This document shows, one piece after another, positions 16,063-37,385 of a stretch of 64,000 nucleotides of DNA (position 1 is its first letter; every line of letters begins with the position of its first letter). A program made the position numbers and the translations under genes. The notes under the pieces were generated by a model that was given only the letters and a program-made list of their open reading frames with translations, had not been told where the DNA came from and did no database searches. Source of the DNA: an uncultured Bacteroidaceae bacterium (GTDB taxonomy: Bacteria; Bacteroidota; Bacteroidia; Bacteroidales; GCA-2748055); the NCBI GenBank assembly GCA_964538375.1, contig CAZIFQ010000003.1:130439-194438 (forward strand), given 5' to 3'.

Positions 16063-16063
16063 T

Positions 16064-16100: not shown

Positions 16101-16382
16101 TCTTAAATTTTGTTCTATTTACCTTTTAAAATCTGCTGCTATTAAAATGAACTGCAAATTTGATAGTACAAAAATACGTTCTATTCTTCTAAGGAAAATT
16201 AAGTAATTGTTAATTTTAGATTAAACTATTATTCATTCATATATTGGCATCAAACCCAAAAAAATTTAAATTTTCTTATGTTATAAAAATAATTTCTTGT
16301 TTGTTCTGATGAAAAATAGAATCTTTATCCCCGATTTAAAAATCACCTTACGTATATAAGTATCTTAATTAAATATATTCTT

Positions 16383-19023: not shown

Positions 19024-22000
19024 TTATTTTTTTAATTTAGACGGAAAGATATCATACTTTTTCTTGAAGCACTTTGAAAAATAGCCTGCATCGTTAAACC
19101 CGCATTTAATAGCTACCTCAGATACTGACATTGATCCCTTCTTTAGCATTATATAGGCTTGTTTTAGACGAATGCTGCGCATAAACTCTGTTGTTGAAAG
19201 TCCTGTAATGCTTTTAAGCTTGGTATGTAGTAAGGTCCGACTTACATTCATATTTGAGCAAAACATATCTACATCGAATTTAACCTCATCCAGGTGCTCA
19301 TGCACAACATTGACCGCCCGGGAAAGAAATTTTTCATCTTTTTCAGAACAAACCACTTCGTCATAACGAATATCATATTCATCACTGAACCTTCGAATCA
19401 ATTCTCTTCTGAATGACAATATCGATTCTATCTTCAAGACCAATTCCTCATGCTTGAAAGGTTTGGCCAGGTAAGAAACAGCACCCTTCATGTAACCTTT
19501 TAACTCTATATTTTTCTCGGCAGCAGCTGTAAGTATTATGATTGGGATATGAGATGTCAGTATATTTGCCTGTAAGGACTCAATTACTTCAAAACCATTC
19601 ATTTCTGGCATCATGATATCGCATATAATCAGCGAAAGTTCTTGTTGTACCACCATGGATAAGGCCTGCTTTGGACTGCTGGTTATGATTGTGTTATATT
19701 CTGAATCCAAACTATCCTTGAGCATAGTTAGCAGATCTTCATTGTCATCGATGATTAAAATGTGTGGTCGATTTTCCTCTTTAATCATTGTCTTAGCAAC
19801 AGATTCACGATGAATTATATTATCGTACGCTCCTTCTGCCTGAAGATTTATCCCATGAAGTATCTGCTCCTTACCGGGCTTATCTATTGGAAATTCAACT
19901 TTGAAGATTGATCCCAAACCAAGCTCTGACTCAAGCTCAATAGTACCTCCCATCTGTTTAACCATTCCTGCAGTATAAGCTAATCCAATACTTTTCTCAC
20001 TCAAATTTGCACCTTCATCATTGTTAAAATGCTTTTGGATTTCATTGAGCAACTCCCCATGGATTCCCGGTCCTGTATCTTTCACAAGCAACACGCATGT
20101 TGTCCTGTCCTTTTCATCTACAGAAACTTCTACATAGACACTCCCATTACTCTTGTTAAACTTAAACGCATTGGACAACAGGTTATAGATTACCCGTTCC
20201 AATTTTTCAGGATCAAAATATCCCAGGATATCACTTTGAATAATTTTTTTAGTATAGCTTAGTTGGTTCGCTTCTGCCCAGTTATCAAACATGCTGCATG
20301 TATTTGCCGCGAACTGAAGGATGGGTTGTTTTTTTACCTCAAGGGGCTTAAAACCGGACTCCAGCTTTCCATAATCCATAAAATCATTGACAAGTTTGCT
20401 TAAATTATCGGAATTATTCTGGATGGTTTGCAACTTGTCTTCTACATCCTTATCCACGCTAAATTTTGTGAGAATATTTGAAATCGTACCTCCAATAATG
20501 GTTAAGGGAGTCCTGAATTCGTGTGAGATATTCAAAAAGAAACGCATTTTTTGGTCATTCAACACTTTTTGATTGTCCTTTTCATAACGCTCAAGAGACA
20601 GGAAGTTTTTTTCATTTTGCCTTCTTAAAAATTCCCGCCTCGCATATAGAAAGATCAGCATCACCAGGATAGCATAGAATACATAAGCATATGCTGTTTG
20701 CCAAACGGCAGGTTTTCTATAAATATTTATAACAGAAGGTGGCCCGTATATTAGCCCATCTGAGACCGGTCGCACTTCAACTTTATGCCATCCTTTTGAT
20801 AAATTTGAAAATGTAACAAGGCGGTTACTCAGCATTTGATCCCAATTCCCTTTTTTACCGGAAATCCTAATCTCATAATTTAAGTCCCTTGATTGAGTGT
20901 AAGCTAAAGTGGAAAATTCAAGAGATAAAAAAGTCTGATAAGATTTCAGTCGCAATATGTCCTGCTTGTTATCCATGTACAGCGTATGAAGAGTGGTCTT
21001 ATCATCTCCAACAACGGTGTAGCTGGTGAATAAAACTTCAGGAATTCTGTGCACATAATTCTTTAGTTTAACAGGATCGAATGATATCAATCCATTGTAG
21101 GTTCCAAAAAACATCTGGTTGTCAGAAGTTTTAAAGGCCGAATTGAAATTAAACTGGTTTTCAGGCAACCCATCATACATATTGTATTTCTTCAACAACT
21201 CCCCATCTTCAGTAAAACAACTAAGACCATTTGTGGTACTCACCCAATAGGAACCAGCGTCATCAATTAATACCGACCTGAATTCTGTAATACCTTTGCT
21301 GGTAAGAATACAATCCAGGGATTTATTGTCGCAGGAAAACATATACAATCCGGAAGTACAGGTGATGGCAAATCTTTGTTTTCCGATATCGGTAATAGAT
21401 GAGATATTCTGCATCTCATAAAACTCATCTTCCCTTGAAAAGTTTGTTATCACATCATTCTCCAGGTCACAATAGTATAATCCATTCCTCAGTGTTCCTG
21501 CCAATAATTCATTATCAGATACACATTTTAGTGTATAAACCATCCTATTCGCAAAAATTTCTTCCTTATATGCATAGATATCCCTCGTTTTCAGGTCAAG
21601 AATATAGATACCATCAACGGCTCCAACATATATCTTTTCATCGCTACTACCAGAGATAGCAAAAATCATTTTGTTTACAAGATATGATTCAACCCTGGCT
21701 AACCCTGGTTCCTCTCCGATGAAAGTAATATGATAGCACTCTAATCCCTCGTTGAATGAACCCACCCAAAGTTTATCCCCATCCAGAATCAGGGAATGCA
21801 CATTTTTATACTCATTCTCTTTTTCAAAAAAGAAGCGCTTAACGGCTCCTGTTTTAAGATTGAGATAATTTAGCCCTCCATCTTCAAGAGCTAACCAGAG
21901 GTTGCCAAACTTATCTTCCTGCATCTCTCTAACTACCTTCCCACTTAGATTGTCATCGCTGTTACCCGGGAAATAAATGGCGAACTTATCAAAACTGCTG

Positions 22001-22944
22001 TTCCAGATGTTGATACCCCCAAAATATGTCCCCACCCACATATTATCAGCCTTGTCCCTGAATATAGAATAGATGGCATTGTCATTCAGTCCCTGGTTTA
22101 AAGAAACATCTCTGAACAATTCCTGGGCACTTTCTGTTTTCGGATCGAAAATCACAATTCCGAATTCACCACCTACCCATACTCGTTTTTCATGATCTAA
22201 CTCAATACAACGAATGTGCTTATCGGCGAAAAATGAATTGTAATTTCTAACAATCTCAAAATCACTGTTCCTGTAATATAGATTGGTAAATGTCGAAAAC
22301 CAATATCCTCCCTCGCCATCTTTAATTATTCCATTAATATCATGGAAATATGAATCATTCCCAATATCAGATTCCAACAATTTCATATGTTTATCGAAAC
22401 GAAAAAATCCTTTGCTTGTACCGAGCAAGAGTTCTTCTTTTTCGCTAATTATCATTGCTCTTACGTGTATATTATCTATGCCAGACACATATTGATTGTA
22501 ATTCTTCCATTGTTTCCCAGCCCTGTCATATTGATAGAGCCCGGCACTTGTACCACAAAAAATATTATTTTCAAACTCAATGAAGCACGCTTCATCTAAT
22601 AACTGTAGCTTTTTGCTCAATTTAAGTTGATTGCTATGCATGTTATACTCGTAGATTCCTGAAGAAGCAACGGTAAAGAAACCACTGCTTGTTTCAATCA
22701 TTGCAGAAAATTCCTTTGGAGCAGATGAAATGGAATCTTCCATGGTGGAAATAAGAAAATTGTACCCATCATATCTCGACAATCCACTCCTGGTTCCTAC
22801 ATAAATGTACCCTCCCTCATCCTGAAAAACAAAGCGCGCATGATTATCTGGCAGCCCGTCGTTACTTGTCATATGCAAGAAACGCTGTGCATAAGTACCA
22901 GTCAATGTAATAAATAGAAATACTATGGCGTAAAATACTCTCAT
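19024..22944 (-). CDS. Hybrid two-component system (sensor propeller, Y_Y_Y, HisKA, HATPase, REC, AraC HTH)
   Basis: Reg_prop repeats (DGLPDN, WVGTYFGG), TM, NISHEFRTPLT, YNLLSNAFKF, DTGPGI, CDIMMPEMNG, GFNDAGYFSKCFKK. Start moved from 23040 to the signal-peptide ATG. Confidence 0.96.
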   Translation of the reverse strand: MRVFYAIVFLFITLTGTYAQRFLHMTSNDGLPDNHARFVFQDEGGYIYVGTRSGLSRYDGYNFLISTMEDSISSAPKEFSAMIETSSGFFTVASSGIYEYNMHSNQLKLSKKLQLLDEACFIEFENNIFCGTSAGLYQYDRAGKQWKNYNQYVSGIDNIHVRAMIISEKEELLLGTSKGFFRFDKHMKLLESDIGNDSYFHDINGIIKDGEGGYWFSTFTNLYYRNSDFEIVRNYNSFFADKHIRCIELDHEKRVWVGGEFGIVIFDPKTESAQELFRDVSLNQGLNDNAIYSIFRDKADNMWVGTYFGGINIWNSSFDKFAIYFPGNSDDNLSGKVVREMQEDKFGNLWLALEDGGLNYLNLKTGAVKRFFFEKENEYKNVHSLILDGDKLWVGSFNEGLECYHITFIGEEPGLARVESYLVNKMIFAISGSSDEKIYVGAVDGIYILDLKTRDIYAYKEEIFANRMVYTLKCVSDNELLAGTLRNGLYYCDLENDVITNFSREDEFYEMQNISSITDIGKQRFAITCTSGLYMFSCDNKSLDCILTSKGITEFRSVLIDDAGSYWVSTTNGLSCFTEDGELLKKYNMYDGLPENQFNFNSAFKTSDNQMFFGTYNGLISFDPVKLKNYVHRIPEVLFTSYTVVGDDKTTLHTLYMDNKQDILRLKSYQTFLSLEFSTLAYTQSRDLNYEIRISGKKGNWDQMLSNRLVTFSNLSKGWHKVEVRPVSDGLIYGPPSVINIYRKPAVWQTAYAYVFYAILVMLIFLYARREFLRRQNEKNFLSLERYEKDNQKVLNDQKMRFFLNISHEFRTPLTIIGGTISNILTKFSVDKDVEDKLQTIQNNSDNLSKLVNDFMDYGKLESGFKPLEVKKQPILQFAANTCSMFDNWAEANQLSYTKKIIQSDILGYFDPEKLERVIYNLLSNAFKFNKSNGSVYVEVSVDEKDRTTCVLLVKDTGPGIHGELLNEIQKHFNNDEGANLSEKSIGLAYTAGMVKQMGGTIELESELGLGSIFKVEFPIDKPGKEQILHGINLQAEGAYDNIIHRESVAKTMIKEENRPHILIIDDNEDLLTMLKDSLDSEYNTIITSSPKQALSMVVQQELSLIICDIMMPEMNGFEVIESLQANILTSHIPIIILTAAAEKNIELKGYMKGAVSYLAKPFKHEELVLKIESILSFRRELIRRFSDEYDIRYDEVVCSEKDEKFLSRAVNVVHEHLDEVKFDVDMFCSNMNVSRTLLHTKLKSITGLSTTEFMRSIRLKQAYIMLKKGSMSVSEVAIKCGFNDAGYFSKCFKKKYDIFPSKLKK

Positions 22945-23117
22945 ATAAGCTAAGCCTTCTCCATGCAAATTTAATGATTTCAATGTAGCAAATAATCTGA
23001 TGCTTACCATGTCAGCAGTACACTTGCATACCTTGTACAAAACTATATGATTAAGTATAAGAAATTGAGTTTTCTGTCATAAAACATGGTATATCAACTG
23101 TCTTATTTTCAATTACT

Positions 23118-23208: not shown

Positions 23209-24312
23209 ATGCCTAAACTATCTTTCATAGTATTCCTTGTGGTGCTGACTTCATGCAATGGATTCAAAGGAAAAGATCAGCTACCTTATCAAAATCCTTT
23301 AGCAGTTGAATTTGGAGATCCGTACATTCTTCTTGCGTCTGACGGAAGATATTATATGTATGGCACTGGTGGAGGGGCGATTGATGGATTCAGTGCCTAT
23401 TCATCAGACAACATGGTGGACTGGAAACATGAAGGACAGGTCTATAGAGGTAATACAGAAAATTCATGGTCGCTTAAGAATTTCTGGGCGCCCGAGGTCT
23501 ATGAAAAAAACGAAAAATTCTATTTGCTTTTTAGTGCAGATTGGAGATACAATCCTACTAACGAATTAGAAAATTTTCGTATTGGTGTTGCAGTGGCTGA
23601 TTCTCCCACCGGGCCATTTGAAGATATGTATGACCATCCGCTGTTCGATCCCGGTTATCCCATTATTGATGCAAACCTTCTTTTCGAAGGAGATAAAACT
23701 TATTTATATTATTCCCGATGCTGTTATAAGAACCCGGTTGAAAGCGACGCTGCTGAATGGGCGAGAAATGAAAATCTGTTTGAAGAAATTGAGGAAAGCT
23801 GGATATACGGAGTTGAAATTTCTCCTGATTTTGATACCATCATTGGAGAACCTGAACTAATTTTGCGCCCCCCGGTAAATAACAACGATGAACAATTTGA
23901 ATGGGAAAGCAGGTCTGTTACTTCCGGTGAGGTTAACCGAAGATGGACTGAAGGGTCTTTTATATTCAAGAAAAATGGAACCTACTATATAATGTACTCT
24001 GCCAACTTCTTTGGCGGTAAACACTATGCAGTTGGATATGCAACTTCTACCGATCCCCTGGGACCATTTATTAAAGCAGAAAACAATCCGGTTCTGCAAA
24101 AGAATATCCAGGATGGAGGTGTCGTAAGCGGTACTGGCCATAATAGTATTACCTGGTCGAAAGATGGCAAACAAATGTATTGTGTTTATCACGGGAGGAC
24201 CACAGAAACCGGAAATGAGCGTGTAGTATTTATAGACAAGATGAAAATCAGCGAAGAAGGTGTTCTTATTGTTGAAGGTCCAACAACTACAATTCAATCA
24301 ATGATGCAATAA
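23209..24312 (+). CDS. GH43 glycoside hydrolase, lipoprotein (arabinofuranosidase/galactofuranosidase-like)
   Basis: Lipobox LTSC; catalytic motifs FGDPY, WAPEV, IIDAN, WTEGS intact; GTGHNS. Confidence 0.92.
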   Translation: MPKLSFIVFLVVLTSCNGFKGKDQLPYQNPLAVEFGDPYILLASDGRYYMYGTGGGAIDGFSAYSSDNMVDWKHEGQVYRGNTENSWSLKNFWAPEVYEKNEKFYLLFSADWRYNPTNELENFRIGVAVADSPTGPFEDMYDHPLFDPGYPIIDANLLFEGDKTYLYYSRCCYKNPVESDAAEWARNENLFEEIEESWIYGVEISPDFDTIIGEPELILRPPVNNNDEQFEWESRSVTSGEVNRRWTEGSFIFKKNGTYYIMYSANFFGGKHYAVGYATSTDPLGPFIKAENNPVLQKNIQDGGVVSGTGHNSITWSKDGKQMYCVYHGRTTETGNERVVFIDKMKISEEGVLIVEGPTTTIQSMMQ

Positions 24313-24388
24313 TTAAAAGAATAAACAAACATTACAAATGTATAACAATAGTCACAGTATTATGAAATACTATTTTACTAAACAATCT

Positions 24389-27300
24389 ATGAAAACAGCA
24401 ATATTATTACTGTTTATTTTGACATTATCAATAAGCGCTATAGGTCAGAATACAGTAACTGGAGTAGTTAAAGATGCTGTTGATGTCCTGCCCGGGGTAT
24501 CAGTTGTAATCAAGGGAACTACCACAGGGACTATTACTGATAATAACGGTAGCTTCACTGTTAATATCGAGCAGGGAACTATCCTCAGTTTCTCTTATAT
24601 TGGTTATGAAACTAAAGAAGTTGAATACACAGGAAACTCTCAGGAAATGCTTGTCGTGTTGGCAGCGAAAACGGAAGAGCTGGATGAGCTAATTGTTATT
24701 GGGTATGGTACGCAAAAGAAGAGTGACCTCACAGGAGCAGTAGGTGTTGTAGATATGGATGAGCTAAAGAAAGTCCAGACAACTGGTGTGGCGGAGGCCT
24801 TGCAGGGTCTTGTTGCCGGAGTATCTGTTAAGACATCTGGTTCTCCCGGGACATGGGGTGATGTGAAGATTAGAGGATTTGGATCATTTTCCAATTCTGG
24901 CCCCCTATATGTTATTGATGGTCTGATTTTGAATGATGCCAATGGGATCAACACATCGGATATTGAATCCATCCAGGTACTAAAGGATGCTTCTGCAGCA
25001 GCCATCTATGGATCTCGAGGTTCAAACGGCGTTATTATCATTACAACCAAGAAAGGGCGTGAAGGACCTTCTAAAATTGATTTTACAGCCAGTTACGGTA
25101 TTCAGGAATTATCAAAAAAACTTGATATGATGGGTTCTGAAGAATATCTTTTCTATAATCAACTTGGGTATATTAATGGAGGAGAAGAATGGCTTGGTCG
25201 CCCAGCAGTTGGAGATACAGTTGCTAACACTGATTGGCAGGATGCTATCTTCCAGATTGGAAATGTCCAGGAATACAATTTATCCATTGCAGGAGGTTCA
25301 AAGAATAATAAGTACATGATTGGAGCAGGCTATTATTCTCATGAAGGTGCATTGAAGGGCCCCTGGTACAATCGTATGACATTCAGGGTAAATTCTGAAA
25401 CCAAAAAAGGTCGCCTAACTGTTGGTGAGAACATTTCATATACGATTTCTGAGCAAAAACTTTCAAATGGAGGCTCATTTGGGAACGCGTTGAATATGCC
25501 TCCGGTCATTCCAGTATATAATCCTGACGAAATAAGTGGCAGAGGTGGATATGGTTATGGAAATGTAAAATATCCCACTTATGCCACAAATCCTGTCGCC
25601 ATTCAAGAATCTATTAATGATATGCAGAACCATCACAGGATCATTGGAAACATGTTTGCAGAGTTGGAATTGGTAGAGGGCTTACGATTCAGGAGCAGTA
25701 TAGGTATAGACCATTGGAATGGTCGTTTTAAATATGTGGACGAGGCTGTGACCAAACGTTATCTCTCCGTTGAGACACGTTTTAATGATCTTCTTTCGGA
25801 AGAAAGAGTGGAAAGAACTAACCTATCGTTGGAAAATACTTTAAGCTATAATTTGAATTTAGACAAACACAGAATAGAATTCCTTCTTGGAAGCACGGTT
25901 GAGAACAGTAAGATGTATTTCCTTGGAAATAATGGTTACAACCAGAATGTTTTGGGAAAATGGCAAATAGATCTTGTTCAGGAGCAAAACAATATGTGGG
26001 GAAGAGAGCATGAGGTTCATATCATTTCATACCTTGGAAGAATAAATTATAACTTTGATGATAGAATTTTATTCCAGTCAAACATCAGAAGAGACGGATC
26101 ATCGAAGTTCGCCCCGAATTACAAATGGGGATTCTTCCCTTCTGCCTCCCTGGGATGGAGAGTCAGCAATGAGAGCTTTTTTCAGTCACTTAAAAATACG
26201 GTATCTGATCTGAAACTTCGTGTAAGCTATGGTTCAAATGGTGACCAGGCTGTGCTGGGAGCTTACGACTGGATTCCTACAATAGATCACAATGGTCCAT
26301 ATGAGGGGCTTTATTATAACTTTGGGGGAGTCATCAATGAGGGTGCGATACAAACAACTAGGGCAAATACAAATTTGCACTGGGAATCGAAAACAACCTT
26401 TAATGTAGGTGCTGATTTTGGGCTATTTCAAAATAAATTATATGGTTCTGCAGAATGGTACAGTGCAAAATCAACCGGTTTACTTGTGAGTCTGCCTCTC
26501 TCCTTTGCAACAGGAGTTGGAGTCAGTTTCTATGGTAGTGATGCCAGTGAATGGACCAATTATGGGGAAATGACCAATAAGGGTTTGGAGCTAACACTTG
26601 GATGGAAAGAAGTACGAGGAGATTTTGCCTACAATATTAATGCGAATTTCAATTCAATAAAGAACAATGTTATTGAACTGGGAGAATCCTTCAGGGAAGG
26701 AGGATTCAGTCATGTGAACAGGACAGCCGAAACCAGGTCTGTATCCGAATTTTACCTGATTAAAACTGATGGTATTTTCCAGAGCATGGATGAAGTATTT
26801 AACCACACTGCTACCTTAGAGGATGGAACTATCGCACTTATTCAGCCCAATGCTAAACCTGGTGATATACGCTATGAGGATTTCAATACTGATGGTCAGA
26901 TAGACCTGGATGACAGGCAGTGGTGCGGAAGTCCCCTTCCAAAATTTGAAGCAGCACTTAATTTTTCAGCAAGTTACAAAGGTTTTGATTTATCGATGTT
27001 CTGGACAGGTGTTTATGGAAATAAAATCTTCAGTGTATTGAGAACCGGGATTGAAACAATGGACAGCCCGAATAACATGCCTTCATATATAGAACCCTGG
27101 ACATGGGATAATCCTTCAGAAATTTATCCAAGACCAGTGAAAGGGACAACGGATAATGCCAGGGCTCAGTCTGATCGTTGGATTGAGGATGGATCGTTTC
27201 TGCGGTTGAAAAATTTTCAAATCGGATATTCTGTTCCTGAGTCCTTATTACGAAAAACAAATTTCTTCCAATCTTGCAGGATATATATGAGCGGGCAAAA

Positions 27301-27433
27301 CTTGCTCACTTTCACAAATTATCTTGGATACGATCCAGAAATCGCCGGAAATGATGTGTTTGGATTGGGTAATGATTGGGCAGGATATCCGCCTGTGACT
27401 TCATATATGGTTGGACTGCAGCTGTCGTTCTAA
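24389..27433 (+). CDS. susC: SusC-like TonB-dependent transporter
   Basis: CarboxypepD_reg-like N-terminus, IGYGTQKKSDLTGAV, IQVLKDASAAAIYGSRGSNGVIIITTKKG plug, C-terminal GLQLSF. Start moved from 24338. Confidence 0.97.
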   Translation: MKTAILLLFILTLSISAIGQNTVTGVVKDAVDVLPGVSVVIKGTTTGTITDNNGSFTVNIEQGTILSFSYIGYETKEVEYTGNSQEMLVVLAAKTEELDELIVIGYGTQKKSDLTGAVGVVDMDELKKVQTTGVAEALQGLVAGVSVKTSGSPGTWGDVKIRGFGSFSNSGPLYVIDGLILNDANGINTSDIESIQVLKDASAAAIYGSRGSNGVIIITTKKGREGPSKIDFTASYGIQELSKKLDMMGSEEYLFYNQLGYINGGEEWLGRPAVGDTVANTDWQDAIFQIGNVQEYNLSIAGGSKNNKYMIGAGYYSHEGALKGPWYNRMTFRVNSETKKGRLTVGENISYTISEQKLSNGGSFGNALNMPPVIPVYNPDEISGRGGYGYGNVKYPTYATNPVAIQESINDMQNHHRIIGNMFAELELVEGLRFRSSIGIDHWNGRFKYVDEAVTKRYLSVETRFNDLLSEERVERTNLSLENTLSYNLNLDKHRIEFLLGSTVENSKMYFLGNNGYNQNVLGKWQIDLVQEQNNMWGREHEVHIISYLGRINYNFDDRILFQSNIRRDGSSKFAPNYKWGFFPSASLGWRVSNESFFQSLKNTVSDLKLRVSYGSNGDQAVLGAYDWIPTIDHNGPYEGLYYNFGGVINEGAIQTTRANTNLHWESKTTFNVGADFGLFQNKLYGSAEWYSAKSTGLLVSLPLSFATGVGVSFYGSDASEWTNYGEMTNKGLELTLGWKEVRGDFAYNINANFNSIKNNVIELGESFREGGFSHVNRTAETRSVSEFYLIKTDGIFQSMDEVFNHTATLEDGTIALIQPNAKPGDIRYEDFNTDGQIDLDDRQWCGSPLPKFEAALNFSASYKGFDLSMFWTGVYGNKIFSVLRTGIETMDSPNNMPSYIEPWTWDNPSEIYPRPVKGTTDNARAQSDRWIEDGSFLRLKNFQIGYSVPESLLRKTNFFQSCRIYMSGQNLLTFTNYLGYDPEIAGNDVFGLGNDWAGYPPVTSYMVGLQLSF

Positions 27434-27462: not shown

Positions 27463-29040
27463 ATGAAAAAAGGTGTTTCTATATTTTTGTTCCTTGGATT
27501 GATCATACTTTTTCAATCCTGTTCCGAGGATAAACTTTACCTTAATGACCCGAACCGAGAATCATCTGACACCTATTGGGAGCAAGAAGATGACTACTGG
27601 CTTGGCCTTACTGCAGCCTATTCGGGATTCCGAGTGCCTGGATATTTTAGCAGATGGTTTCACGTTCTGATGATCTCCAGAAGTGATGAAGGTTGGAGTG
27701 AAAGTCCAAATGCGTATTTCCAGGCATATTCTAATTTCAACATAATAAGTTATAATGATGACAATGCAGAGGGAATATATCAGCCCTGGGCAGTTATTTA
27801 TCGACAGATCTTCTATGTGAACCAGGTGATAGACAATATGAATGAAAAAGGATTTGATCTCTTTGAAAATATAGATGATGCAAATAGCATACTTGGGCAG
27901 GCCTACTTCGCAAGGGGATTCGCTTACTGGTACCTGGCTGGATCATATGGGAAAGGTCCGAGGATGATCAACTCTACAGATAATGGAGAGATCATACTTC
28001 AGGAAGACATCTATCTCCAGGCGATGAATGACTTTAAGCAAGCAGAGGAAATTCTACCTGTTAGCTGGTCATCAGGTGATGTAGGGAGACCCACACAAGG
28101 CAGTGTGAAGGGAATGATTGCAAGGATATATTCCCAGTTGGCCGGATATTACAATAGACCTGAAATAAATGATCAGACAAAGGTGCAGGAGTACTGGAAC
28201 CTGACCAAAAATGCTCTCGAAGATGTTTTTACTATGAATTATTCACTGGTGCCTGATTATAAAGACAATTTCACCATGGTCAATGAGAATAATAGCGAGT
28301 CTCTCTTTGAAATTCAGTTCGATGAAGGACTATACAACGGGAGTGAACTAGGAGCCCACAGGCCAAAATTCTTCGGGCTGGTGGTTGATGGAGGTGCCTG
28401 GGCGGATGCTTATCCCAGGGCCTGGTTACTGGATGAGTTTAAACTCGAGCGTACCGCAGCTGATGAAGTTGACCCAAGACTGGGTGTAACACTATTCTAT
28501 GATATTCCTGGTGATACAACCTTACTGTATGGAAATACCTGGGATCAATGGATGGCAACCGAAGATTATACGCTCACTCAACCTTGCTACTGGAGAAAAT
28601 ATACCCGTGTTGATACGCATAGTTCTGAAGATTACAGCTCAGGAATCAATTTCCGCTTATTAAGACTTGCAGACATGTATCTTCTTTACGCGGAAACTCT
28701 CAATGAACTCAATGGAGACAGGTCTGAGGCTGTTGAATATATTAATAAAGTCAGACGTAGGGTGGGAATGAGTGACCTTGATGCTGGTAATTTTTCCAGC
28801 AAGAATCTTCTTCATGAACAAATTATGCACGAAAGATTGATGGAACTATGCGGGGAAGGAACCAGATGGTACGATTTGGACAGATGGGGTATTTTGCACG
28901 ACCAGGTTGAAATAAACGCTATGGCTTCAGAAAGAGATGCAGAATTCAATAATTTCGAGTTAGGAGTTAGTCACCTATACCCTATCCCAAACAGAGAATT
29001 ATCTCTTTATCCCGGATTGGAGCAAAATCCAGGTTACTAA
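27463..29040 (+). CDS. susD: SusD/RagB-family glycan-binding lipoprotein
   Basis: Lipobox FQSC, GQAYFARGFAY, LLRLADMYLLYAE, ERLMELCGEGTRWYDLDRWG, LEQNPGY. Confidence 0.96.
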   Translation: MKKGVSIFLFLGLIILFQSCSEDKLYLNDPNRESSDTYWEQEDDYWLGLTAAYSGFRVPGYFSRWFHVLMISRSDEGWSESPNAYFQAYSNFNIISYNDDNAEGIYQPWAVIYRQIFYVNQVIDNMNEKGFDLFENIDDANSILGQAYFARGFAYWYLAGSYGKGPRMINSTDNGEIILQEDIYLQAMNDFKQAEEILPVSWSSGDVGRPTQGSVKGMIARIYSQLAGYYNRPEINDQTKVQEYWNLTKNALEDVFTMNYSLVPDYKDNFTMVNENNSESLFEIQFDEGLYNGSELGAHRPKFFGLVVDGGAWADAYPRAWLLDEFKLERTAADEVDPRLGVTLFYDIPGDTTLLYGNTWDQWMATEDYTLTQPCYWRKYTRVDTHSSEDYSSGINFRLLRLADMYLLYAETLNELNGDRSEAVEYINKVRRRVGMSDLDAGNFSSKNLLHEQIMHERLMELCGEGTRWYDLDRWGILHDQVEINAMASERDAEFNNFELGVSHLYPIPNRELSLYPGLEQNPGY

Positions 29041-29093
29041 ATCGCCTTATTAATTTGTTGAATATGAAAGTAATAAATCTCAAAAGATATACG

Positions 29094-30137
29094 ATGAAAA
29101 GAATAATAGGAATTTTGATTTTTCCACTCCTGCTTACTTACACAAACTCATGCACTGACGTGCTTGGAGATGGTATGTATACTATTGTTTGGGAAGGTAG
29201 TGAAGTGCCACAGGACTCCTGCTATAGAAATCCTGTCTGGGATCCAGACCTCTCATTTCCTACAGTATTCAAAGCAGCTGTCGGATATTATGCCTTTGGT
29301 GCCGATAATGAATGGAGCCCAGGTATGGAAATTACAACACCTGCCTTGAGCTCCACGGACTTAATGAACTGGAGATTAAGAGGTTCGTGCTTCAATGCCA
29401 AACCCGATTGGTCTGAAGAAAAAGTTACGGCTCTTTCAGCAGGATTTGCAAAAACAAAGGGTATGTATTATATTTTTTATGCTTTGGGAAACGAAGGCAT
29501 TGGAATGGGAGCTTCAAAAGCTCCTCAGGGACCATTTACTGATTTTGGTCTGCTAATAAATGCAGATTCTGTGGGTCTTTTTGAATGTAATAATCCATTT
29601 TTCTTTACTTTCGGTTCCAAGGCATATATCTATTTTCAGGGTGGAGATGGGATGTATGGTCATGAATTGCTTTTAAGCAAAACTGAATTGGCAACACTTA
29701 ATGGTGACCTATTTAAAGTGGCAGGTGGTTCAATTAGCAGCATAAATATGACTAAACTTGGTGATTATTATTACATGTTTGGAGGAATTGATGCTGGTGT
29801 TGGAAGTAAAATTACTCTCGGACGTGCTGACAATGCTAAGGGTCCATTTTTGGATAAGAATGGTGATTCCTTGTTAGATGGTGATGGAACGACATTATTG
29901 CAAAGTATGGAGGATAATGTATTTAGTGAAGTCAAGCACGTTGGGGGAGTCTTCGAGGATTCAAATGAGGATATCTGGATAGTATACCAGGCCACAAACA
30001 TGAATATGCCACTCTTAACCTCCGGCTCTGAACGACATCCTTTGATGCTTACTAAAATAGATTTTGACAATGATGGATGGCCTTTAAAGGTTTTTGAAGC
30101 AAAAAGCGGATGGAATCATCCCAAGTTTGCCAAGTAA
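29094..30137 (+). CDS. GH43-fold lipoprotein lacking catalytic residues (probable surface glycan-binding protein)
   Basis: Lipobox TNSC; YRNPV, STDLMNW, PQGPFTD, GPFLDKNG propeller motifs kept; catalytic positions read LSFP, VTALS, CNNP, ISSI. Confidence 0.7.
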   Translation: MKRIIGILIFPLLLTYTNSCTDVLGDGMYTIVWEGSEVPQDSCYRNPVWDPDLSFPTVFKAAVGYYAFGADNEWSPGMEITTPALSSTDLMNWRLRGSCFNAKPDWSEEKVTALSAGFAKTKGMYYIFYALGNEGIGMGASKAPQGPFTDFGLLINADSVGLFECNNPFFFTFGSKAYIYFQGGDGMYGHELLLSKTELATLNGDLFKVAGGSISSINMTKLGDYYYMFGGIDAGVGSKITLGRADNAKGPFLDKNGDSLLDGDGTTLLQSMEDNVFSEVKHVGGVFEDSNEDIWIVYQATNMNMPLLTSGSERHPLMLTKIDFDNDGWPLKVFEAKSGWNHPKFAK

Positions 30138-30208: not shown

Positions 30209-32152
30209 ATGAAAAAACTACTTTACACATTAATGCTAGTCCTATTAACATCAGGACTTTATGCACAATCCCTTGTTGTGCATACTGAGCTTGGTCAGGC
30301 GGGGGGCGGTGGTGCATCTGTGGATATTAATGCAGATGGGGACCTTGATTTTTACATTTCTGGTCATACCCCTGGCCTAGAACCTTTACTGAAAGCTGAT
30401 GGTACTCCTATTGATTATGGTGATGATGGTACAGTTGATTCAACTTCCAGATGGCAGAGATTGTATTTATATACTGAATCCGGTTATGAAAAGACAACAA
30501 CTAGTTTAAGGCTTGTCGACAGGGCAAACCTGGACTGGTATGATGTAAATGGGGATGGAATACTAGACCTCCTGGGCACAGAGCATTCATTTAATGATTA
30601 TGATAAGCCTGATGATCCATGGTACAATGGTGGAGTTTATTTAAGCGACGGAGATGGTAATTTTACAAAATCAGACTGGCCATTATATGAGCGGTCTAAT
30701 GCCGGTGCCTTTGCTGATTTCAACAGTGACGGCCATATTGATTACGTAACAATTTCTACTGACAGTGCTAGTTCGTTTGTCTACATGAATAATGGAGATG
30801 ACACATTCGCAGAAACTAGTGGTGATGTTTTCGGAGAATACAAATTCGGCATTCCATACCTGGAGGTCGTTGATTACAATAACGATGGTCTAACAGACAT
30901 CTTTATAACTTCCAATTGCGACAACCCTGCAACAAATGATGGAGCGAGGGTTATATGCGACATCTTTATCAACAATAGTGAAGAGCCCGGAACTTTCTAC
31001 AGGGCATTTATTGGGGATAATGGCGTTTTCCAAAAAGGAAATGGAGGCGTTGATTTCGCTGACTATAACGGAGATGGAAACATTGACTTTGCATTATACG
31101 GAGAAGGTGGAACAGGTACCGGAGAACCAGGTGGTGGTGAAGATGAGTGGGCTTGTATAACACATGTTTATTTAAATCAGGGTGATGGCACTTTCCTTGA
31201 CAAAGCACAACCTGCAATAATTAATGATATCCGTCCACTTAACAGTACTGGAGTTGGAACTGGTAACATCGACTGGGACAACGATGGAATCCATGATTTG
31301 ATCATTACAGGTTGGGCTCCAGCTCCAGATCCAGGACCACATACACAAGCTGGATATCTTTATAAAGGAGATGGAGCAGGAAACTTCACGGAAGTTGGTC
31401 GTGTTCCCGGTGGATCAGAAACTGTATTGTTATTCAATGATTGGAATGGCGATGGAGTAAAAGACTACCTTGTTTCCGGACACTGCTGGGATGACATGTG
31501 GTATACTCCTGAAGAGGTGGGAAGAACTGCATCTGTGTATTTCAATGCGAACACAAGTTCTCCAAATGTTAAACCTGCAGCTCCTGGCAATTTACAGGCT
31601 ACTTATTCAGATGGAACAGTTACCCTTTCATGGGATGAGGCAACTGACGACAAAACTCCGTCAGCTTCACTTACTTATGAATACTACCTGAAAGATGATA
31701 ATGGTGATTTCATGATAGCGCCTTCTTCAATAGTTGGTGGTGAAAATGATGGTTTCAGAATGGTCAACAAACTTGGTAATGCCTTTCTAAATACATCAAT
31801 TTCTATTTTCGATCTTGAACTAGGTGGCGACTTTACCTGGAGTGTCCAGGCTATAGATGCTTCCTTTGATGGGTCTCTTTTTGCTACTGAGACATCAATT
31901 CATATTCCTACTGGAGTTCAACAGAACACACTGGATTCACAGCTTAAACTATATTCTGCCAATGAAGAACTTGTTGCAAAACTCAGCAATGGAAAAGTTG
32001 GTAATATATCCATCTTAAATATATTAGGTCAGGTCATGACCATCGATATTATTGAAGGAGAGTATAGGAAACAACTACCCCAAGGTGTATACGTTGTAAA
32101 AGTTGAATGCGAAGGTGAAGTAGTGACAAAAAAAGTTTTGCTTGCCCAATAA
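30209..32152 (+). CDS. FG-GAP/VCBS repeat beta-propeller + FN3-like domain + T9SS type-A CTD
   Basis: Seven DxNxDGxxD-type repeats (DINADGDLD ... DWNGDGVKD), PAAPGNL..TLSWD, C-terminal ILGQ...GVYVVKV...KKVLL. Confidence 0.85.
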   Translation: MKKLLYTLMLVLLTSGLYAQSLVVHTELGQAGGGGASVDINADGDLDFYISGHTPGLEPLLKADGTPIDYGDDGTVDSTSRWQRLYLYTESGYEKTTTSLRLVDRANLDWYDVNGDGILDLLGTEHSFNDYDKPDDPWYNGGVYLSDGDGNFTKSDWPLYERSNAGAFADFNSDGHIDYVTISTDSASSFVYMNNGDDTFAETSGDVFGEYKFGIPYLEVVDYNNDGLTDIFITSNCDNPATNDGARVICDIFINNSEEPGTFYRAFIGDNGVFQKGNGGVDFADYNGDGNIDFALYGEGGTGTGEPGGGEDEWACITHVYLNQGDGTFLDKAQPAIINDIRPLNSTGVGTGNIDWDNDGIHDLIITGWAPAPDPGPHTQAGYLYKGDGAGNFTEVGRVPGGSETVLLFNDWNGDGVKDYLVSGHCWDDMWYTPEEVGRTASVYFNANTSSPNVKPAAPGNLQATYSDGTVTLSWDEATDDKTPSASLTYEYYLKDDNGDFMIAPSSIVGGENDGFRMVNKLGNAFLNTSISIFDLELGGDFTWSVQAIDASFDGSLFATETSIHIPTGVQQNTLDSQLKLYSANEELVAKLSNGKVGNISILNILGQVMTIDIIEGEYRKQLPQGVYVVKVECEGEVVTKKVLLAQ

Positions 32153-32296: not shown

Positions 32297-32908
32297 ATGA
32301 AATTTTTTACAGTGACTCTGCTCTTACTTCTCCCCATAGCCATTTATTCACAGAGTGTTAATCAGAAAGTTATACTTCAATTAGTACAAGCAAATTTATT
32401 AAGGATTGATGCTGGTGCGGATCTTTCATTATCTGAATCAGGCACAGCTATCATTGGAGAAAACATTAGTATAAATGGTGGCACACCAGAGTATACATAT
32501 ACATGGAGTGATAATCAAGGTAATGCGTATTTTGAACAATCTCCTCTAGTTTCTCAAATTGGTAGTTATTATCTGACCGTCACTGATCAAAACAACTGTA
32601 CTTCAAGAGATTCAGTTAGTATGAGTAGCTTTAAAACTGGTACCGAAGTACTATTATTGGACCATATAGAAATCCTTCATTTCGATAATCAAAAGCAAAC
32701 TCTTCATGTAAAACTTGGCAAATCTTACTCAAATGTCCTTGTTAGAATCATTGGAATAGATGGGAAATGCCATTATTCCCATAGCTTTACAGACAGCAGT
32801 TTTGGATTCGATCATCATATTGATGTCAGTACCTTTAGCAAGGGAATCTATATTCTCTCTGCATCGTTTAGAAATGAACAATTTGCTAAAAAATTCACCC
32901 TAAATTAG
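32297..32908 (+). CDS. Small secreted protein: short Ig/PKD-like domain + T9SS type-A CTD
   Basis: Signal peptide, DAGAD...GGTPEYTYTW...YYLTVTDQNNC, C-terminal IIGIDGK...KGIYIL...KKFTLN. Confidence 0.75.
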   Translation: MKFFTVTLLLLLPIAIYSQSVNQKVILQLVQANLLRIDAGADLSLSESGTAIIGENISINGGTPEYTYTWSDNQGNAYFEQSPLVSQIGSYYLTVTDQNNCTSRDSVSMSSFKTGTEVLLLDHIEILHFDNQKQTLHVKLGKSYSNVLVRIIGIDGKCHYSHSFTDSSFGFDHHIDVSTFSKGIYILSASFRNEQFAKKFTLN

Positions 32909-32915: not shown

Positions 32916-34904
32916 ATGTATCACAATAAAATATTGGTAATTCTGTTTTTATTACTTTTTTCAGTGATAAAAATTAGCGCCCAGGAAGAAATAGATCTCT
33001 ATTCAGTTTATTATAATAATGTGGAACCTATTGATTTGCAACTTAGTAAATTCCCTCATGGTACTGTTCAATGGCAATTTTCGAGGGACAAAGGAAATTC
33101 CTGGGATAATATTGGAGGAGCAAACGAATTTAGCATTAAATATAACTCCGATACATCAGTATATCTTCGCGCCGCAGTTCTTTCAGGAACTTGCGACTCA
33201 GTTTTTTCGCAATATGCTTATCTTAAAACCCTACGGGTTTTTACATCCGGAATTAACGAACTTACAGATTCTTCTGCAACGATTCATTGCGAAATTGATA
33301 CAATCAATACAGCGATAAAGGAATACGGAATTCTTTACAGTAATCAGCAAATAGTGGATGAGAATTCACTACGATTTAGTTTATTTCCTCCTGTTAGTGA
33401 ATCATATTCCATTGAAATAAATGGACTTGAAGCTGGCGTTCAATATTATGCCCGTGCATTTGCATTAACTAAAGATTCAACAATAGTATTAGGAAACTTA
33501 CTCGATTTTTCACCAGTAAAAATTGCGTTAGAGCAAAATTATTCTGTTGGCACAGAAACAGCATTCTTGAACTATGAAATTCTCGGTATCAGCTCTGAAG
33601 ATATTGATGAGCATGGGATTTTCCTGAATACAGTTTCCGGATCTATTCAGAGCGCAGAAAAAATTATTGGGATCTACGTCAATGGACAATTTTCTGCTTC
33701 TGCAGCTTCACTAAACCAGGGAATGGACTATTTTGTTCAAGCCTTCATGAAGATTGGAGAATCTTATTATTACAGTTCGGAAAAACAAATTCGAACCTGG
33801 TCAGAATACAATGATCCGATCGACACTTCACCATTTGACATAAAATACAGGATTGAATGGAATGATACTTCAACGGCTGTAAAATTAAATCCTGAAGGTA
33901 CCTTCGGTGACTATGCCAGGGTTGAAAGGATTGGAAATTCAGATACCTTGATATTGGTTTACCAGGGCGGACCGAATACCAATGATTGGCTTAATATCTA
34001 TTTGCGAAAAAGTTTTGATAATGGAACCACCTGGGAAGACCAGGAGATAATCATGAATCTGGCCGACTACCCTGGCGAGTATTGGCGTTTTTGTACACCT
34101 GAGCTCCTATTTCTCCAAAACGGATGGTTATTACTCGCCTTTGAAGCAAACGCACGGCCCGATGAGAACAAAAGCTCAGTACAAATCCTCATCAGTAAAG
34201 ATTCTGCAAGTACCTGGAATGATCCAATAAAATATGTGACGGGAAGAACCTGGGAACCAAGCATGGTACAATTACCTCATGGTGAAATAGAATTGTTTTA
34301 TTCCAGTGAGGATAAGTGGTGGGGGACTGATAATTTATATCAGGATATTCAGCTTATTCGATCAACAGACAATGGAGAATCATGGTCAGATCCCCAGGTT
34401 GTCGCCTACTACCCAAATAAGAGAGATGGCATGCCAGTACCATTATTATTACAGGGGAATAAGGGTGTTGTATTTGCAATTGAATGTGTAGGTTCCTCAT
34501 ATTCACCTTACATCATTCACAGGGATATGAATGAGCCATGGATATTGGAACAGTCTGACTTTATTAATTCTCCAAATCGATGGCTTATTGAAGGTTTCAG
34601 CGGCCATGGCGGTGCTCCTTATATTCTGCAGCTTCCGAGTGGCGAAATAGTATATTCGGCTCATATTTACCGCGGAGGTGATTGGCACCAAAATAATTAC
34701 CAGGAAGTGATGATCGGAGATAATGACTCAAGAAATTTTGAGAACTTAACACGTCCCTGGGGTCTCCCTCCCTTGAATGAAGGAGCAATAAATAATAGTT
34801 TGTTTCTGAAAGATGAAACAACTATTGTAACAATTTCTACACGCATGTTTACTAACGGAACCGGAGGTCTATACTGGCTGGAAGGAAAAATAGTACTAAA
34901 ATGA
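32916..34904 (+). CDS. Secreted FN3-like repeats + BNR/Asp-box propeller (GH93/sialidase-like)
   Basis: Asp boxes SFDNGTTW, SKDSASTW, STDNGESW; TWEPS and RDGMP...FAIE motifs as in GH93 exo-arabinanases; FN3-like GLEAGVQYYARAFA. Confidence 0.7.
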   Translation: MYHNKILVILFLLLFSVIKISAQEEIDLYSVYYNNVEPIDLQLSKFPHGTVQWQFSRDKGNSWDNIGGANEFSIKYNSDTSVYLRAAVLSGTCDSVFSQYAYLKTLRVFTSGINELTDSSATIHCEIDTINTAIKEYGILYSNQQIVDENSLRFSLFPPVSESYSIEINGLEAGVQYYARAFALTKDSTIVLGNLLDFSPVKIALEQNYSVGTETAFLNYEILGISSEDIDEHGIFLNTVSGSIQSAEKIIGIYVNGQFSASAASLNQGMDYFVQAFMKIGESYYYSSEKQIRTWSEYNDPIDTSPFDIKYRIEWNDTSTAVKLNPEGTFGDYARVERIGNSDTLILVYQGGPNTNDWLNIYLRKSFDNGTTWEDQEIIMNLADYPGEYWRFCTPELLFLQNGWLLLAFEANARPDENKSSVQILISKDSASTWNDPIKYVTGRTWEPSMVQLPHGEIELFYSSEDKWWGTDNLYQDIQLIRSTDNGESWSDPQVVAYYPNKRDGMPVPLLLQGNKGVVFAIECVGSSYSPYIIHRDMNEPWILEQSDFINSPNRWLIEGFSGHGGAPYILQLPSGEIVYSAHIYRGGDWHQNNYQEVMIGDNDSRNFENLTRPWGLPPLNEGAINNSLFLKDETTIVTISTRMFTNGTGGLYWLEGKIVLK

Positions 34905-36196
34905 AAAAATTACTTACCAGATTATTATTCTGTCTGGCAATTATCTCTTCAGTAGTAACAAATAATATATTGTCAGCCCAATGCACGTATCAGAATCCAA
35001 TCATGGAGGGGGCAGATCCTTTTGTTACCTTTCATGATGGAAATTATTATGTTCTGGTTACCAGGGCAAACAGGATAGGAATTAAGAGTTCGCCGAAACT
35101 ACAGGATATTGCACCCCTTAGTGAGATAAAGGTTTTTGATTTTATAGGCAGCCCTGTTGGTGGTCATATTTGGGCCCCTGAGTTGCACTATATAGACGGA
35201 AACTGGTACATATACAGTTGTGGGCAAAATACTGGTCTTGATTACAATGAAGAATGGGTTAACTATGTTCAGGATCGCCAGGAAATGTTTGTCCTGAAGA
35301 GTACAACGGGAGACCCTTTCGGTCCGTATGAATTCTATTCATGGTTGATGCCGGGATTAGGTGCAATTGATGAAACAATTTTTACACATGCCAATGGGAA
35401 GAAATATATAATCTGGTCCCAGTTTAATATCCCTGGTCAACCTCAAAATCAGTGTTTGTATATTGCTGAGTTGCTTTCCCCTAAATCGATAGGTGTTGAC
35501 AGAGTGATGATCTCTTGTCCGGATCAGGAATGGGAACTGCATGGCTGGCCGGTAAATGAAGGTGCCGCAGTTTTGCAGAAAAATGGGAAAACTTATATCG
35601 TTTATTCCGGAAGTGGCTATTTAACTCCTGAATATGCTCTTGGATATTTGGTAAATACCGATGGTGATCTGTTGAACCCTGATTCCTGGACTAAAGTAGG
35701 ACCTGTTTTTCAGCAAGATCCTTCTGCTGGAATTTATGCGACAGGACATAATTCCTTTACCACTTCTCCAGATGGAACCGAAGATTGGATAGCTTATCAT
35801 GGACGATTAAGTACTGACGGAAATGAACCAAGATATATGTTTATACAGAAATTCTCATGGGATGATGATATACCTGAATTTGGAAAACCAGCACCTTTGT
35901 ATACATATCTTAACTGTCCCAGTGATACTGGAACGATTATTAATACACAAGTCTTTGAAGTAAATGACTTACTAATATATCCAAACCCGGCAAGTGAATA
36001 TCTTCAGATTGAATTACCTGCAAATGGTTGTGAAGCAGAAATAGAAGTTCTGAATGTAATGGGGCAGACTTTTAGTAATGTTAGCTATACTGGTGGTAAG
36101 CTGAATATTAAAGAATTAGTAATGGGAATCTATTTGTTAAAAGTAAATACGGGTGAGAAACAGTACTATTGTCGTTTTCTAAAGAATAGTATATAA
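34901..36196 (+). CDS. GH43 alpha-L-arabinofuranosidase-like (GH43_26/27-type) + T9SS CTD
   Basis: GADPF, HIWAPELH, AIDET, VNEG, ATGHNSF..SPDGTEDWIAYH; C-terminal IYPNPAS...GIYLLKV. Confidence 0.9.
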   Translation: MKKLLTRLLFCLAIISSVVTNNILSAQCTYQNPIMEGADPFVTFHDGNYYVLVTRANRIGIKSSPKLQDIAPLSEIKVFDFIGSPVGGHIWAPELHYIDGNWYIYSCGQNTGLDYNEEWVNYVQDRQEMFVLKSTTGDPFGPYEFYSWLMPGLGAIDETIFTHANGKKYIIWSQFNIPGQPQNQCLYIAELLSPKSIGVDRVMISCPDQEWELHGWPVNEGAAVLQKNGKTYIVYSGSGYLTPEYALGYLVNTDGDLLNPDSWTKVGPVFQQDPSAGIYATGHNSFTTSPDGTEDWIAYHGRLSTDGNEPRYMFIQKFSWDDDIPEFGKPAPLYTYLNCPSDTGTIINTQVFEVNDLLIYPNPASEYLQIELPANGCEAEIEVLNVMGQTFSNVSYTGGKLNIKELVMGIYLLKVNTGEKQYYCRFLKNSI

Positions 36197-36287: not shown

Positions 36288-37385
36288 ATGACACAAACAA
36301 AACCTTTATTGTATTTAGCTCTTGCTTTGCTTGTAATTTCCTGTAATACAAGCAACAAACCGACAGAAGAATCTGGATTAGCTGAAAAACAAACAAATAA
36401 ATGGACTGTTGAGCAGGCCAAAGAATGGGGAGAAACTCATGGGTGGCTTCGCGGCTGTAATTTCAATCCCAGTACTGCGATTAATCAACTGGAAACCTGG
36501 CAGGAAGAATCTTTTGATGCAGAGACCATTGACAGGGAGCTGGGCTGGGCAGAAGATATTGGCATGAACTGCATGAGGGTTTATCTGCACCATCTTGCCT
36601 GGGAAGTGGATAAAGAGGGCTTCAAAGCAAGGATGAACAAGTATCTCGAAATTGCTAGCGGGCATGGGATAAAGACCATCTTCGTATTCTTTGATGATTG
36701 CTGGAATCCTACTTACCAGGCAGGCACACAGCCAGATCCTAAACCCGGCGTGCATAACTCCGGTTGGGTTCGCGATCCGGGTGATCTCATATACGAGCAG
36801 CCCGAGCTTATAGAAACATTGGAAGCATATGTTAAGGATGTCCTTAGCACATTTAAAGATGACGAGAGAATTGCCTTGTGGGATCTGTATAATGAACCAG
36901 GGAACTCAGGATACAAGAACAAATCTATGGATCTTCTCAAAAAAGTGTTTGAATGGGGATGGGAAATTCGTCCTACACAACCTATTTCTGTGGGAGTTTG
37001 GAACAATGGATTAAAAGATTTTAACGAATTCCAACTGGAAAACTCAGACATCATTACTTATCATAATTATAATGCACCTGAGCATCACCAGTTAGCAATT
37101 GACTCATTAAAACTTTATGATCGTCCAATGGTCTGCACGGAATATATGGCCCGAAGAAACAACTCTTTTTTCCAAAATATAATGCCAATGTTAGCCCGTG
37201 AGAATGTGGGAGCCATTAACTGGGGACTAGTATCCGGAAAATCAAATACGAAATATGCCTGGGGTGAACCGATACCTGACGGATCAGATCCTGAACTCTG
37301 GTTCCATGAAATTTTTCATCCTGATGGCACACCTTACAGGCAAGAAGAAGTTGACCTGATAAAAAGTTTAACCTTTTCAGAGTAG
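36288..37385 (+). CDS. GH5 glycoside hydrolase lipoprotein (GH5_13-like furanosidase)
   Basis: Lipobox VISC; GCNFNPSTAINQLETWQ, WDLYNEP (acid/base), CTEYMAR (nucleophile), NWGLVSGK. Confidence 0.85.
   Translation: MTQTKPLLYLALALLVISCNTSNKPTEESGLAEKQTNKWTVEQAKEWGETHGWLRGCNFNPSTAINQLETWQEESFDAETIDRELGWAEDIGMNCMRVYLHHLAWEVDKEGFKARMNKYLEIASGHGIKTIFVFFDDCWNPTYQAGTQPDPKPGVHNSGWVRDPGDLIYEQPELIETLEAYVKDVLSTFKDDERIALWDLYNEPGNSGYKNKSMDLLKKVFEWGWEIRPTQPISVGVWNNGLKDFNEFQLENSDIITYHNYNAPEHHQLAIDSLKLYDRPMVCTEYMARRNNSFFQNIMPMLARENVGAINWGLVSGKSNTKYAWGEPIPDGSDPELWFHEIFHPDGTPYRQEEVDLIKSLTFSE

Follow-up and report, generated by a model that had tools for sequence, protein, structure and literature searches.

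What does a glycoside hydrolase contribute to glycan capture once it has lost the residues needed for cutting? This question is raised by a gene in a 64,000-nucleotide stretch of DNA (the window) from an uncultured Bacteroidaceae bacterium, positions 130,439 to 194,438 of contig CAZIFQ010000003.1 (assembly GCA_964538375.1). The gene, at 29094-30137 of the window on the forward strand, lies in a polysaccharide utilization locus (PUL) directly behind susD, and it encodes a lipoprotein of 347 residues (P0001) that matches glycoside hydrolase (GH) family 43 over the full length of the family model, and in which the catalytic triad is absent. We refer to this protein as the dead GH43. On balance, we favour the reading that it is a non-catalytic surface glycan-binding protein (SGBP) that works with SusC and SusD in a seat formerly held by an enzyme.

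A GH43 fold in a lipoprotein encoded behind susD

The open reading frame (ORF) spans 29055-30137 and opens at TTG; the ATG at 29094, which is the start also in the orthologues, gives MKRIIGILIFPLLLTYTNSC. The Pfam model of GH43 (PF04616) covers residues 44-330 with its whole length (model positions 1-288 of 288, E 1.4e-24) and scores 87 bits against a cut-off of 32, compared with 170 bits and 160 bits for the neighbouring GH43s that begin at 23209 and 34901, respectively. The AlphaFold2 (AF2) model, built with 28 homologues, has a mean predicted local distance difference test score (pLDDT) of 84.7 and a predicted template-modelling score (pTM) of 0.83, and low confidence is limited to the first 40 residues, with a pLDDT below 50 at residues 10-40. 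When this model was compared with the PDB by Foldseek, the top matches were the GH43 endo-arabinanases 3cu9, 1uv4, 6b7k and 1gyd, with E values of about 1e-14 and target-normalised TM scores of 0.70-0.75. By fold, therefore, the protein is a GH43, a five-bladed propeller with significant similarity to members of the family, and the original prediction, which had been made from the DNA letters and their translations, was right that the scaffold is kept.

The signal peptide (signal peptidase II type, 29094-29153, forward strand) carries a lipobox (...LLLTYTNS-C20) and ends at Cys20; the equivalent Cys is conserved in 43 members of the clade described below. The gene begins 54 nt past the stop codon of susD. 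Among the loci compared, which came from two metagenome contigs and from genomes of the same family, all 12 others that include the upstream flank also have SusD directly upstream, the SusD orthologues sharing 70-84% identity. The placement of a lipoprotein directly after susD was thus borne out.

Loss of the catalytic triad and of its surroundings

Four degenerate strings had led to the claim that the protein is a pseudo-enzyme, and they were located at residues 53 (LSFP), 112 (TALS), 165 (CNNP) and 214 (ISSI). Equivalences to catalytic positions were taken from HMMER alignments to the arabinanases 1uv4 and 6b7k, and a second alignment was made with MAFFT from 176 GH43 domains, 113 of which bear the triad (the active set). 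Both place F55 (29256-29258) at the position of the general-base Asp, N167 (29592-29594) at that of the pKa-modulating Asp and S215 (29736-29738) at that of the general-acid Glu, all on the forward strand, so that no catalytic carboxylate stands at these positions. Asp, Asp and Glu are found there in 113 of 113 active sequences, whereas the dead clade has Y, F, N, K, R and others at the first position, N, K, E, D and others at the second, and T, E, S, N and others at the third. Within the dead clade, the entropies of the three columns lie at the 92nd, 81st and 86th percentiles. In the MAFFT alignment, L114-S115-A116-G117 (29433-29444, forward strand) falls on the W-A-P-D position, where W, A and P occur in 99%, 98% and 94% of the active sequences and in 0%, 7% and 0% of the dead clade. 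As had been claimed, the other two GH43s of this PUL keep all four motifs (FGDPY/WAPEV/IIDAN/WTEGS and GADPF/WAPEL/AIDET/NEGAA).

The loss extends far beyond these motifs. Active GH43s share 43 residues with a conservation of at least 90%; in the dead clade, 20 of these remain and 23 are lost. The lost residues include the triad, W114-A115-P116, I166, G182, S183, S231, Y238 (100% in active GH43s and 0% in the dead clade), G281, H299 and R315. Those kept include N46, P47, S87, W93, P104, Y125, Y129, several glycines, R244, D289, W295 and W329, and all 20 look like scaffold positions. Since the triad, the WAP motif, Y238, H299 and R315 are all among the lost residues, the -1 subsite has been dismantled wholesale and not merely switched off. 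With base, modulator, acid and the whole -1 shell gone, hydrolysis by the GH43 mechanism should be impossible for this protein.

Some members of the clade retain the acid residue. Where Glu215 survives, position 167 is a Lys in 9 of 11 dead-clade sequences, which suggests a compensating salt bridge that would neutralise the leftover carboxylate. The clade has also acquired conserved residues that are missing from active GH43s, namely W49, E73, F118, M91, Q145, K208 and W340.

One clade under purifying selection

A word-indexed search returned about 23 proteins at 53-78% identity, followed by a sharp drop; when 1.84 billion representatives were searched exhaustively, more tiers appeared at 31-50% identity. 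Eleven more sequences of the dead GH43 came from genomes of the same family, and a search of genome contigs with the single protein yielded only distant Bacteroides GH43s at 21-25% identity. In the joint alignment, an identity to the target of about 31% marks the divide. All 46 sequences at or above 31% are without the D/D/E triad, whereas almost every sequence below this level has D-D-E plus WAPD; the triad-bearing ones make up 113 of the 176 aligned in total. The maximum-likelihood tree unites 45 dead sequences in one clade, which has a support of 100/100 and whose stem measures 0.87 substitutions per site. Because basal members still retain one or two triad residues (P0035 D-S-T, P0036 D-S-A, P0025 N-D-E), the tree argues for a single old origin and a stepwise decay afterwards. 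The residue pattern of the target is not due to chance, since the whole clade of 45 shares it.

Every copy of the dead GH43 is an intact ORF, both in the 12 family genomes that have it and in the metagenome clusters, which number more than 20. Ratios of nonsynonymous to synonymous substitution rates (dN/dS), obtained by the Nei-Gojobori method from pairs with unsaturated dS (0.28-0.90), were 0.08-0.14 for the dead GH43; in the same genome pairs they were 0.04-0.12 for SusD and 0.05-0.12 for the FG-GAP protein encoded downstream. An active cousin, described below, gave 0.05-0.06. These values indicate that the dead GH43 is a functional gene under strong purifying selection and not a decayed copy specific to one genome. 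The claim of a pseudo-enzyme is well supported: a monophyletic clade under strong purifying selection has lost the triad, the WAP motif and some 20 other residues that are near-universal in GH43s.

Of 91 genomes of the family, 12 carry the gene, against none in an even sample of 400 other genomes from across the class, so the clade is confined to one family of uncultured Bacteroidales. Public records label its relatives, which come from uncultured Bacteroidales, as 'arabinan endo-1,5-alpha-L-arabinosidase', 'beta-xylosidase' or 'family 43 glycosylhydrolase', and no account of such a protein turned up in the paper library that was searched for inactive or non-catalytic GH43s.

An active cousin in the same slot

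Paralogous PULs were found in three genomes of the same family, at loci L038 (G072:C101), L039 (G080:C64) and L041 (G085:C82). They have the order SusC, SusD, lipoprotein GH43 and FG-GAP protein, with identities to the window proteins of 45-49% for SusC, 46-50% for SusD and about 30% for the FG-GAP protein. Their GH43, the active cousin, shares about 34% identity with the target, and its motifs are intact (LADPT / WAPDV / SIDPF / FEAT). Its N-terminus is a textbook signal for export to the cell surface (C-N-N-K-E-E-E or C-D-Q-D-K-E-E), its best solved relatives are endo-alpha-1,5-L-arabinanases (1gyd, 4.8e-33), and it stands in the tree as one of the closest neighbours to the dead clade, which retains 7 of 12 residues specific to the cousin lineage. 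Since the paralogous PUL has an active lipoprotein GH43 in the same slot, the position after susD seems to have first held an active surface enzyme of arabinanase type, of which the target would be the dead descendant. The original prediction had taken the slot after susD as one that usually holds an SGBP. The position itself stands, but here it is not simply an SGBP slot.

The cousins also help in reading the conserved residues of the dead clade. D52, W74 and R314 are present in active cousins too and are for this reason best taken as inherited features and not as parts of a rebuilt catalytic centre. D52 as a relocated base was considered and rejected, as active cousins carry it beside the true base.

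The FG-GAP gene follows the GH43 slot in both PUL types, and hence SusC-SusD-GH43-FG-GAP is a conserved four-gene core common to the dead and the active type (L021, L022, L025-L041). At L038 the cousin is flanked by orthologues of two further window genes, the hybrid two-component sensor/regulator (HTCS, 59% identity) and the GH43 upstream of susC (GH43a, 71%), while the dead-GH43 PULs of L021 and L022 have an extracytoplasmic function (ECF) sigma/anti-sigma pair in place of the HTCS. This gives the window locus the look of a mosaic of the two PUL types in which the regulator has been swapped.

N-terminal tether and surface exposure

Between Cys20 and the propeller lies a conserved tether (residues 20-43; 29151-29222, forward strand) of the form C-T-D-[VI]-x-G-D-G...IW. 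The motif starting at Cys20, C-T-D-[VI]-x-G-D-G-[IM]-x-T-V, is found in about 39 of 43 clade members. Within the genome it occurs once among about 184 candidate lipoproteins, and a role as the general export tag of the organism was rejected on this ground. When modelled alone by AF2, the tether is predicted to be disordered; disorder together with conservation would be in line with folding onto a partner.

Lipoprotein export signals have been described as two or more neighbouring acidic residues preceded by a polar or positively charged one, such as K-(D/E)2, SDDDD or SDDFE (PMC5080379), and as CS(D/E)2, with single-Asp variants of SusG reaching about 50% of wild-type packaging into outer-membrane vesicles (OMV) (PMC6222051). 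In the genome under study, 4 of 9 SusD-like lipoproteins have no adjacent acidic pair at +2 to +6. With its partial fit to these signals, the dead GH43 may plausibly be exposed at the surface.

The surrounding genes and the putative substrate

Upstream, the locus comprises the HTCS (19024-23040, reverse strand), which is divergently transcribed and has histidine-kinase and response-regulator matches, followed on the forward strand by GH43a (23209-24312), the SusC-like TonB-dependent transporter (24338-27433; Plug and CarboxypepD_reg domains; orthologues syntenic) and the SusD-like lipoprotein (27463-29040; SusD_RagB and SusD-like_3), which bears the canonical export signal C-S-E-D-K. GH43a is a lipoprotein with an intact triad, and its best PDB match is 4qqs (4e-55). 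Its N-terminus, C-N-G-F-K-G-K, does not resemble an export signal, and GH43a is probably periplasmic.

Downstream of the dead GH43, the next gene, also in the other loci, encodes an FG-GAP repeat protein (30209-32152, forward strand; five FG-GAP_3 matches and Por_Secre_tail) with the C-terminal domain (CTD) of the type IX secretion system (T9SS); elsewhere an extra active GH43 sometimes stands in between. The protein has no recognisable domain of a carbohydrate-active enzyme (CAZyme), and it may be an adhesin or else the endo-acting enzyme that is missing. It is followed, all on the forward strand, by a small T9SS-CTD protein (32297-32908; Por_Secre_tail; syntenic in L021, L022, L036 and L040), a six-bladed sialidase-fold propeller (BNR_2; 32916-34904) and a GH43 with a T9SS CTD (GH43b; 34901-36196), and the longer loci continue in the same way.

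The BNR_2 model (AF2 pLDDT 90.6) consists of N-terminal beta-sandwich domains and the six-bladed propeller. Its best PDB match by Foldseek is 5hx0 (Dfer_1899 from Dyadobacter, uncharacterised), followed by GH33 sialidases, and WEP, RDGMP and E523 are invariant among 33 homologues. A GH93 identity was not supported: no GH93 was among the top 50 Foldseek matches, and phmmer against the PDB gave only weak Asp-box matches to sialidases. Public records name the protein a sialidase, which is doubtful in an arabinofuranoside context.

Relatives of the locus carry a protein of about 685 residues without a Pfam match (L021 15744-17795; L022 16976-19033), and L022 also a GH172 (15696-16931), which sits between its BNR_2 and GH43-CTD genes; both proteins are absent from the window locus. 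In the metagenome contig L021, the SusD orthologue (8417-9995) is split into two ORFs of 414 and 92 residues and the small T9SS protein (13137-13747) into 122 and 81 residues, probably due to frameshifts or assembly errors. Beyond GH43b, the window encodes a 365-residue lipoprotein (36288-37385) with a weak GH2_C/TIM-barrel match in Pfam and no match in PDB or NCBIfam; it is conserved in L021 (45% identity) and L036 (57%).

Several of these genes bear on the substrate. GH43b has an intact triad and is a candidate exo-alpha-1,5-L-arabinofuranosidase of the GH43_26 type, as its best PDB matches include the GH43_26 enzymes 3akf and 5m8e (about 1e-46). An AbfB domain is present in the L022 orthologue of GH43b, and the GH172 lies in the same locus. 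The genome (3.6 Mb, 98.6% complete) has only four GH43 domains, of which the dead one is the sole arabinanase-type member; the single GH43 outside this PUL, on genome contig C7 around 53943 (forward strand), has an intact triad. Taken together, the likeness of GH43b, the AbfB domain, the GH43 content of the genome and the arabinanase ancestry of the dead protein point indirectly to alpha-L-arabinofuranosyl (arabinan-type) polymers as the probable ligand.

Proposed role and alternative explanations

The dead GH43 combines a position beside susC/susD in a PUL, a lipobox and the absence of catalytic residues, as would be expected of an SGBP. In the model that we favour, the dead descendant of a surface lipoprotein GH43 of endo-arabinanase type would have kept its propeller, lipid anchor and tether and would have stayed at the outer membrane with SusC and SusD. 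There, it would capture arabinan-type chains and hold them near the mouth of the transporter. The T9SS-exported enzymes of the same locus would do the cutting, and chains would be handed both to them and to the transporter. That the protein is surface-exposed, docks on SusC and binds a glycan, and which glycan this is, are points that we infer. In a more specific form, which is possible but doubtful, the dead GH43 would be a non-cutting substrate clamp at the mouth of the transporter, mounted on SusC by its tether, catalysis having moved to the T9SS-anchored GH43-CTD and FG-GAP-CTD proteins. The conserved tether and the cousin in the same slot would hint at such a mounting. If true, this would be a natural pseudo-enzyme in the seat of a utilisome GH, within a hybrid lipoprotein/T9SS machine for glycan capture.

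Some observations weigh against a glycan-binding role at the surface. The -1 subsite has been remodelled wholesale, and for this reason the ancestral ligand, or any glycan, may not be bound. In the N-terminus of the target, C-T-D-V-L-G-D, the sole acidic residues are those at +3 and +7, a partial fit to the export signal, whereas the active cousins and the SusD of this PUL (C-S-E-D-K) fit it fully. The assignment of the substrate is indirect, since the locus has no recognisable endo-acting arabinan enzyme, and BNR_2 did not match GH93.

The first of these points also enters the case for a scaffold or adaptor without glycan binding that would be docked on SusC and either stabilise SusCD or recruit the T9SS-exported FG-GAP or GH43 protein. 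An FG-GAP/T9SS gene is always the next conserved gene, the tether is unusually conserved, family-specific and predicted to be disordered alone, and the -1 shell was dismantled and not preserved. We nevertheless consider such a role rather unlikely, because the residues specific to the clade are rich in aromatic and polar side chains of the sugar-site type (W49, F118, W340, E73, Q145, K208), several of them sit next in sequence to former active-site positions, and inactive PUL glycoside hydrolases, both natural and engineered, bind glycans. The remodelled site might instead have remained catalytic, with residues such as D52 and E73 as new base and acid or with a different furanoside chemistry. 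Both carboxylates are conserved among the dead sequences (D52 in 87%, E73 in 83%), roughly one member in four still has the acid Glu, and GH43_24 galactanases function without the canonical base. A GH43-like xylanase that works despite an Asn in place of the modulator Asp (PMC11022575) would also fit. However, the target has none of the three triad residues, none of them is conserved clade-wide and their columns are among the most variable, D52 is ancestral, the surviving Glu215 is mostly paired with the putatively neutralising Lys167, and WAP, Y238, H299 and R315 of the -1 subsite are gone too; all this makes an enzyme improbable.

The incomplete export signal, with a single acidic residue at +3 where the ancestral signal of the K-E-E-E type has been replaced, would suit an outer-membrane lipoprotein that faces the periplasm and binds imported oligosaccharides. 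We give this explanation little credence, since the 4 of 9 SusD-like lipoproteins of the genome without an acidic pair are nevertheless expected to be surface-exposed, the single-Asp SusG variants still reached about half of the wild-type OMV packaging, and both the adjacency to susD and the descent from an enzyme bearing an export signal favour the surface. Finally, the loss of all catalytic residues and a Pfam score below those of the neighbours might be taken as signs of a decaying pseudogene or an annotation artefact. This is extremely improbable in view of the intact ORFs, the dN/dS of 0.08-0.14, the conserved residues of the clade's own and the conserved synteny, and the pseudogene reading was ruled out by the clade tree and the dN/dS values.

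Comparison with known systems

The closest relatives by fold are the GH43 endo-alpha-1,5-L-arabinanases (CjArb43A, 1gyd; BsArb43A, 1uv4; AbnB, 3cu9; the BT0360/BT0367 type of B. thetaiotaomicron). They share the fold of the target and are the best sequence and structure matches both of the target and of its active cousin, but they are only 18-24% identical to the target, which is without the base Asp, the modulator Asp, the acid Glu, WAP and other -1 residues. The public pipelines label proteins of the dead clade as arabinanase, xylosidase or family 43, and consequently CAZyme counts and substrate predictions for these Bacteroidales include an enzyme that is almost certainly non-cutting.

Classical SGBPs (SusE/SusF, BACOVA_04391, BT1761) resemble the dead GH43 in being non-catalytic lipoproteins that are encoded just after susD and bind the glycan of their PUL. 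They differ in architecture, being built of Ig-like/beta-sandwich domains with a distal binding domain, whereas the dead GH43 is one compact propeller with a tether of some 23 residues. The ligand of the dead GH43, if found, would help to give a substrate to a conserved locus that contains the FG-GAP-CTD protein, the sialidase-fold propeller and the protein of about 685 residues.

In the levan utilisome, a surface GH is rigidly mounted on the lip of SusC with its active site towards the mouth of the transporter (10.1101/2022.08.15.503959), and engineered inactive utilisome GHs bind substrate close to this mouth, the dextranase having the highest affinity among the surface lipoproteins (10.64898/2026.02.19.706672). 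As in our case, the levanase BT1760 and the dextranase BT3087 are lipoprotein GHs encoded beside SusC/D, and the levanase is also a five-bladed propeller. Both are, however, active enzymes whose inactive forms are laboratory mutants. The gene order differs too: the levan PUL has an SGBP gene inserted between susD and the gene for the GH.

A natural precedent for an enzyme fold turned into a surface binder is BACOVA_03431 from PUL-XylL of Bacteroides ovatus, an inactive GH10 that serves as a xylan-binding SGBP at the surface (Rogowski et al. 2015, PMC4491172). Like the dead GH43, it is a PUL lipoprotein with a GH fold lacking catalytic residues that has been kept beside SusC/D, and together with the levan utilisome GH and the inactive dextranase it supports the reading as a binding subunit. 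It is a GH10 TIM barrel of another clan and not a GH43 five-bladed propeller, and it has lost its nucleophile and the -2 subsite, whereas the dead GH43 has lost the entire triad and the -1 shell. The surface location and xylan binding of BACOVA_03431 were shown by experiment, whereas surface location and glycan binding are predicted for the dead GH43. Unlike in BACOVA_03431, the loss defines a clade of 45 members, and the slot has an active occupant, the cousin, in a paralogous PUL. Set in one and the same SusC-SusD-GH43-FG-GAP frame, the dead clade and its active cousin form a natural matched pair, in which one can ask what a surface GH contributes to SusCD apart from catalysis, a question for which utilisome studies currently use engineered mutants only. 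A pseudo-glycosidase kept as a PUL binding protein would thus be of a known kind, and what this locus would add is the active cousin in the same seat.

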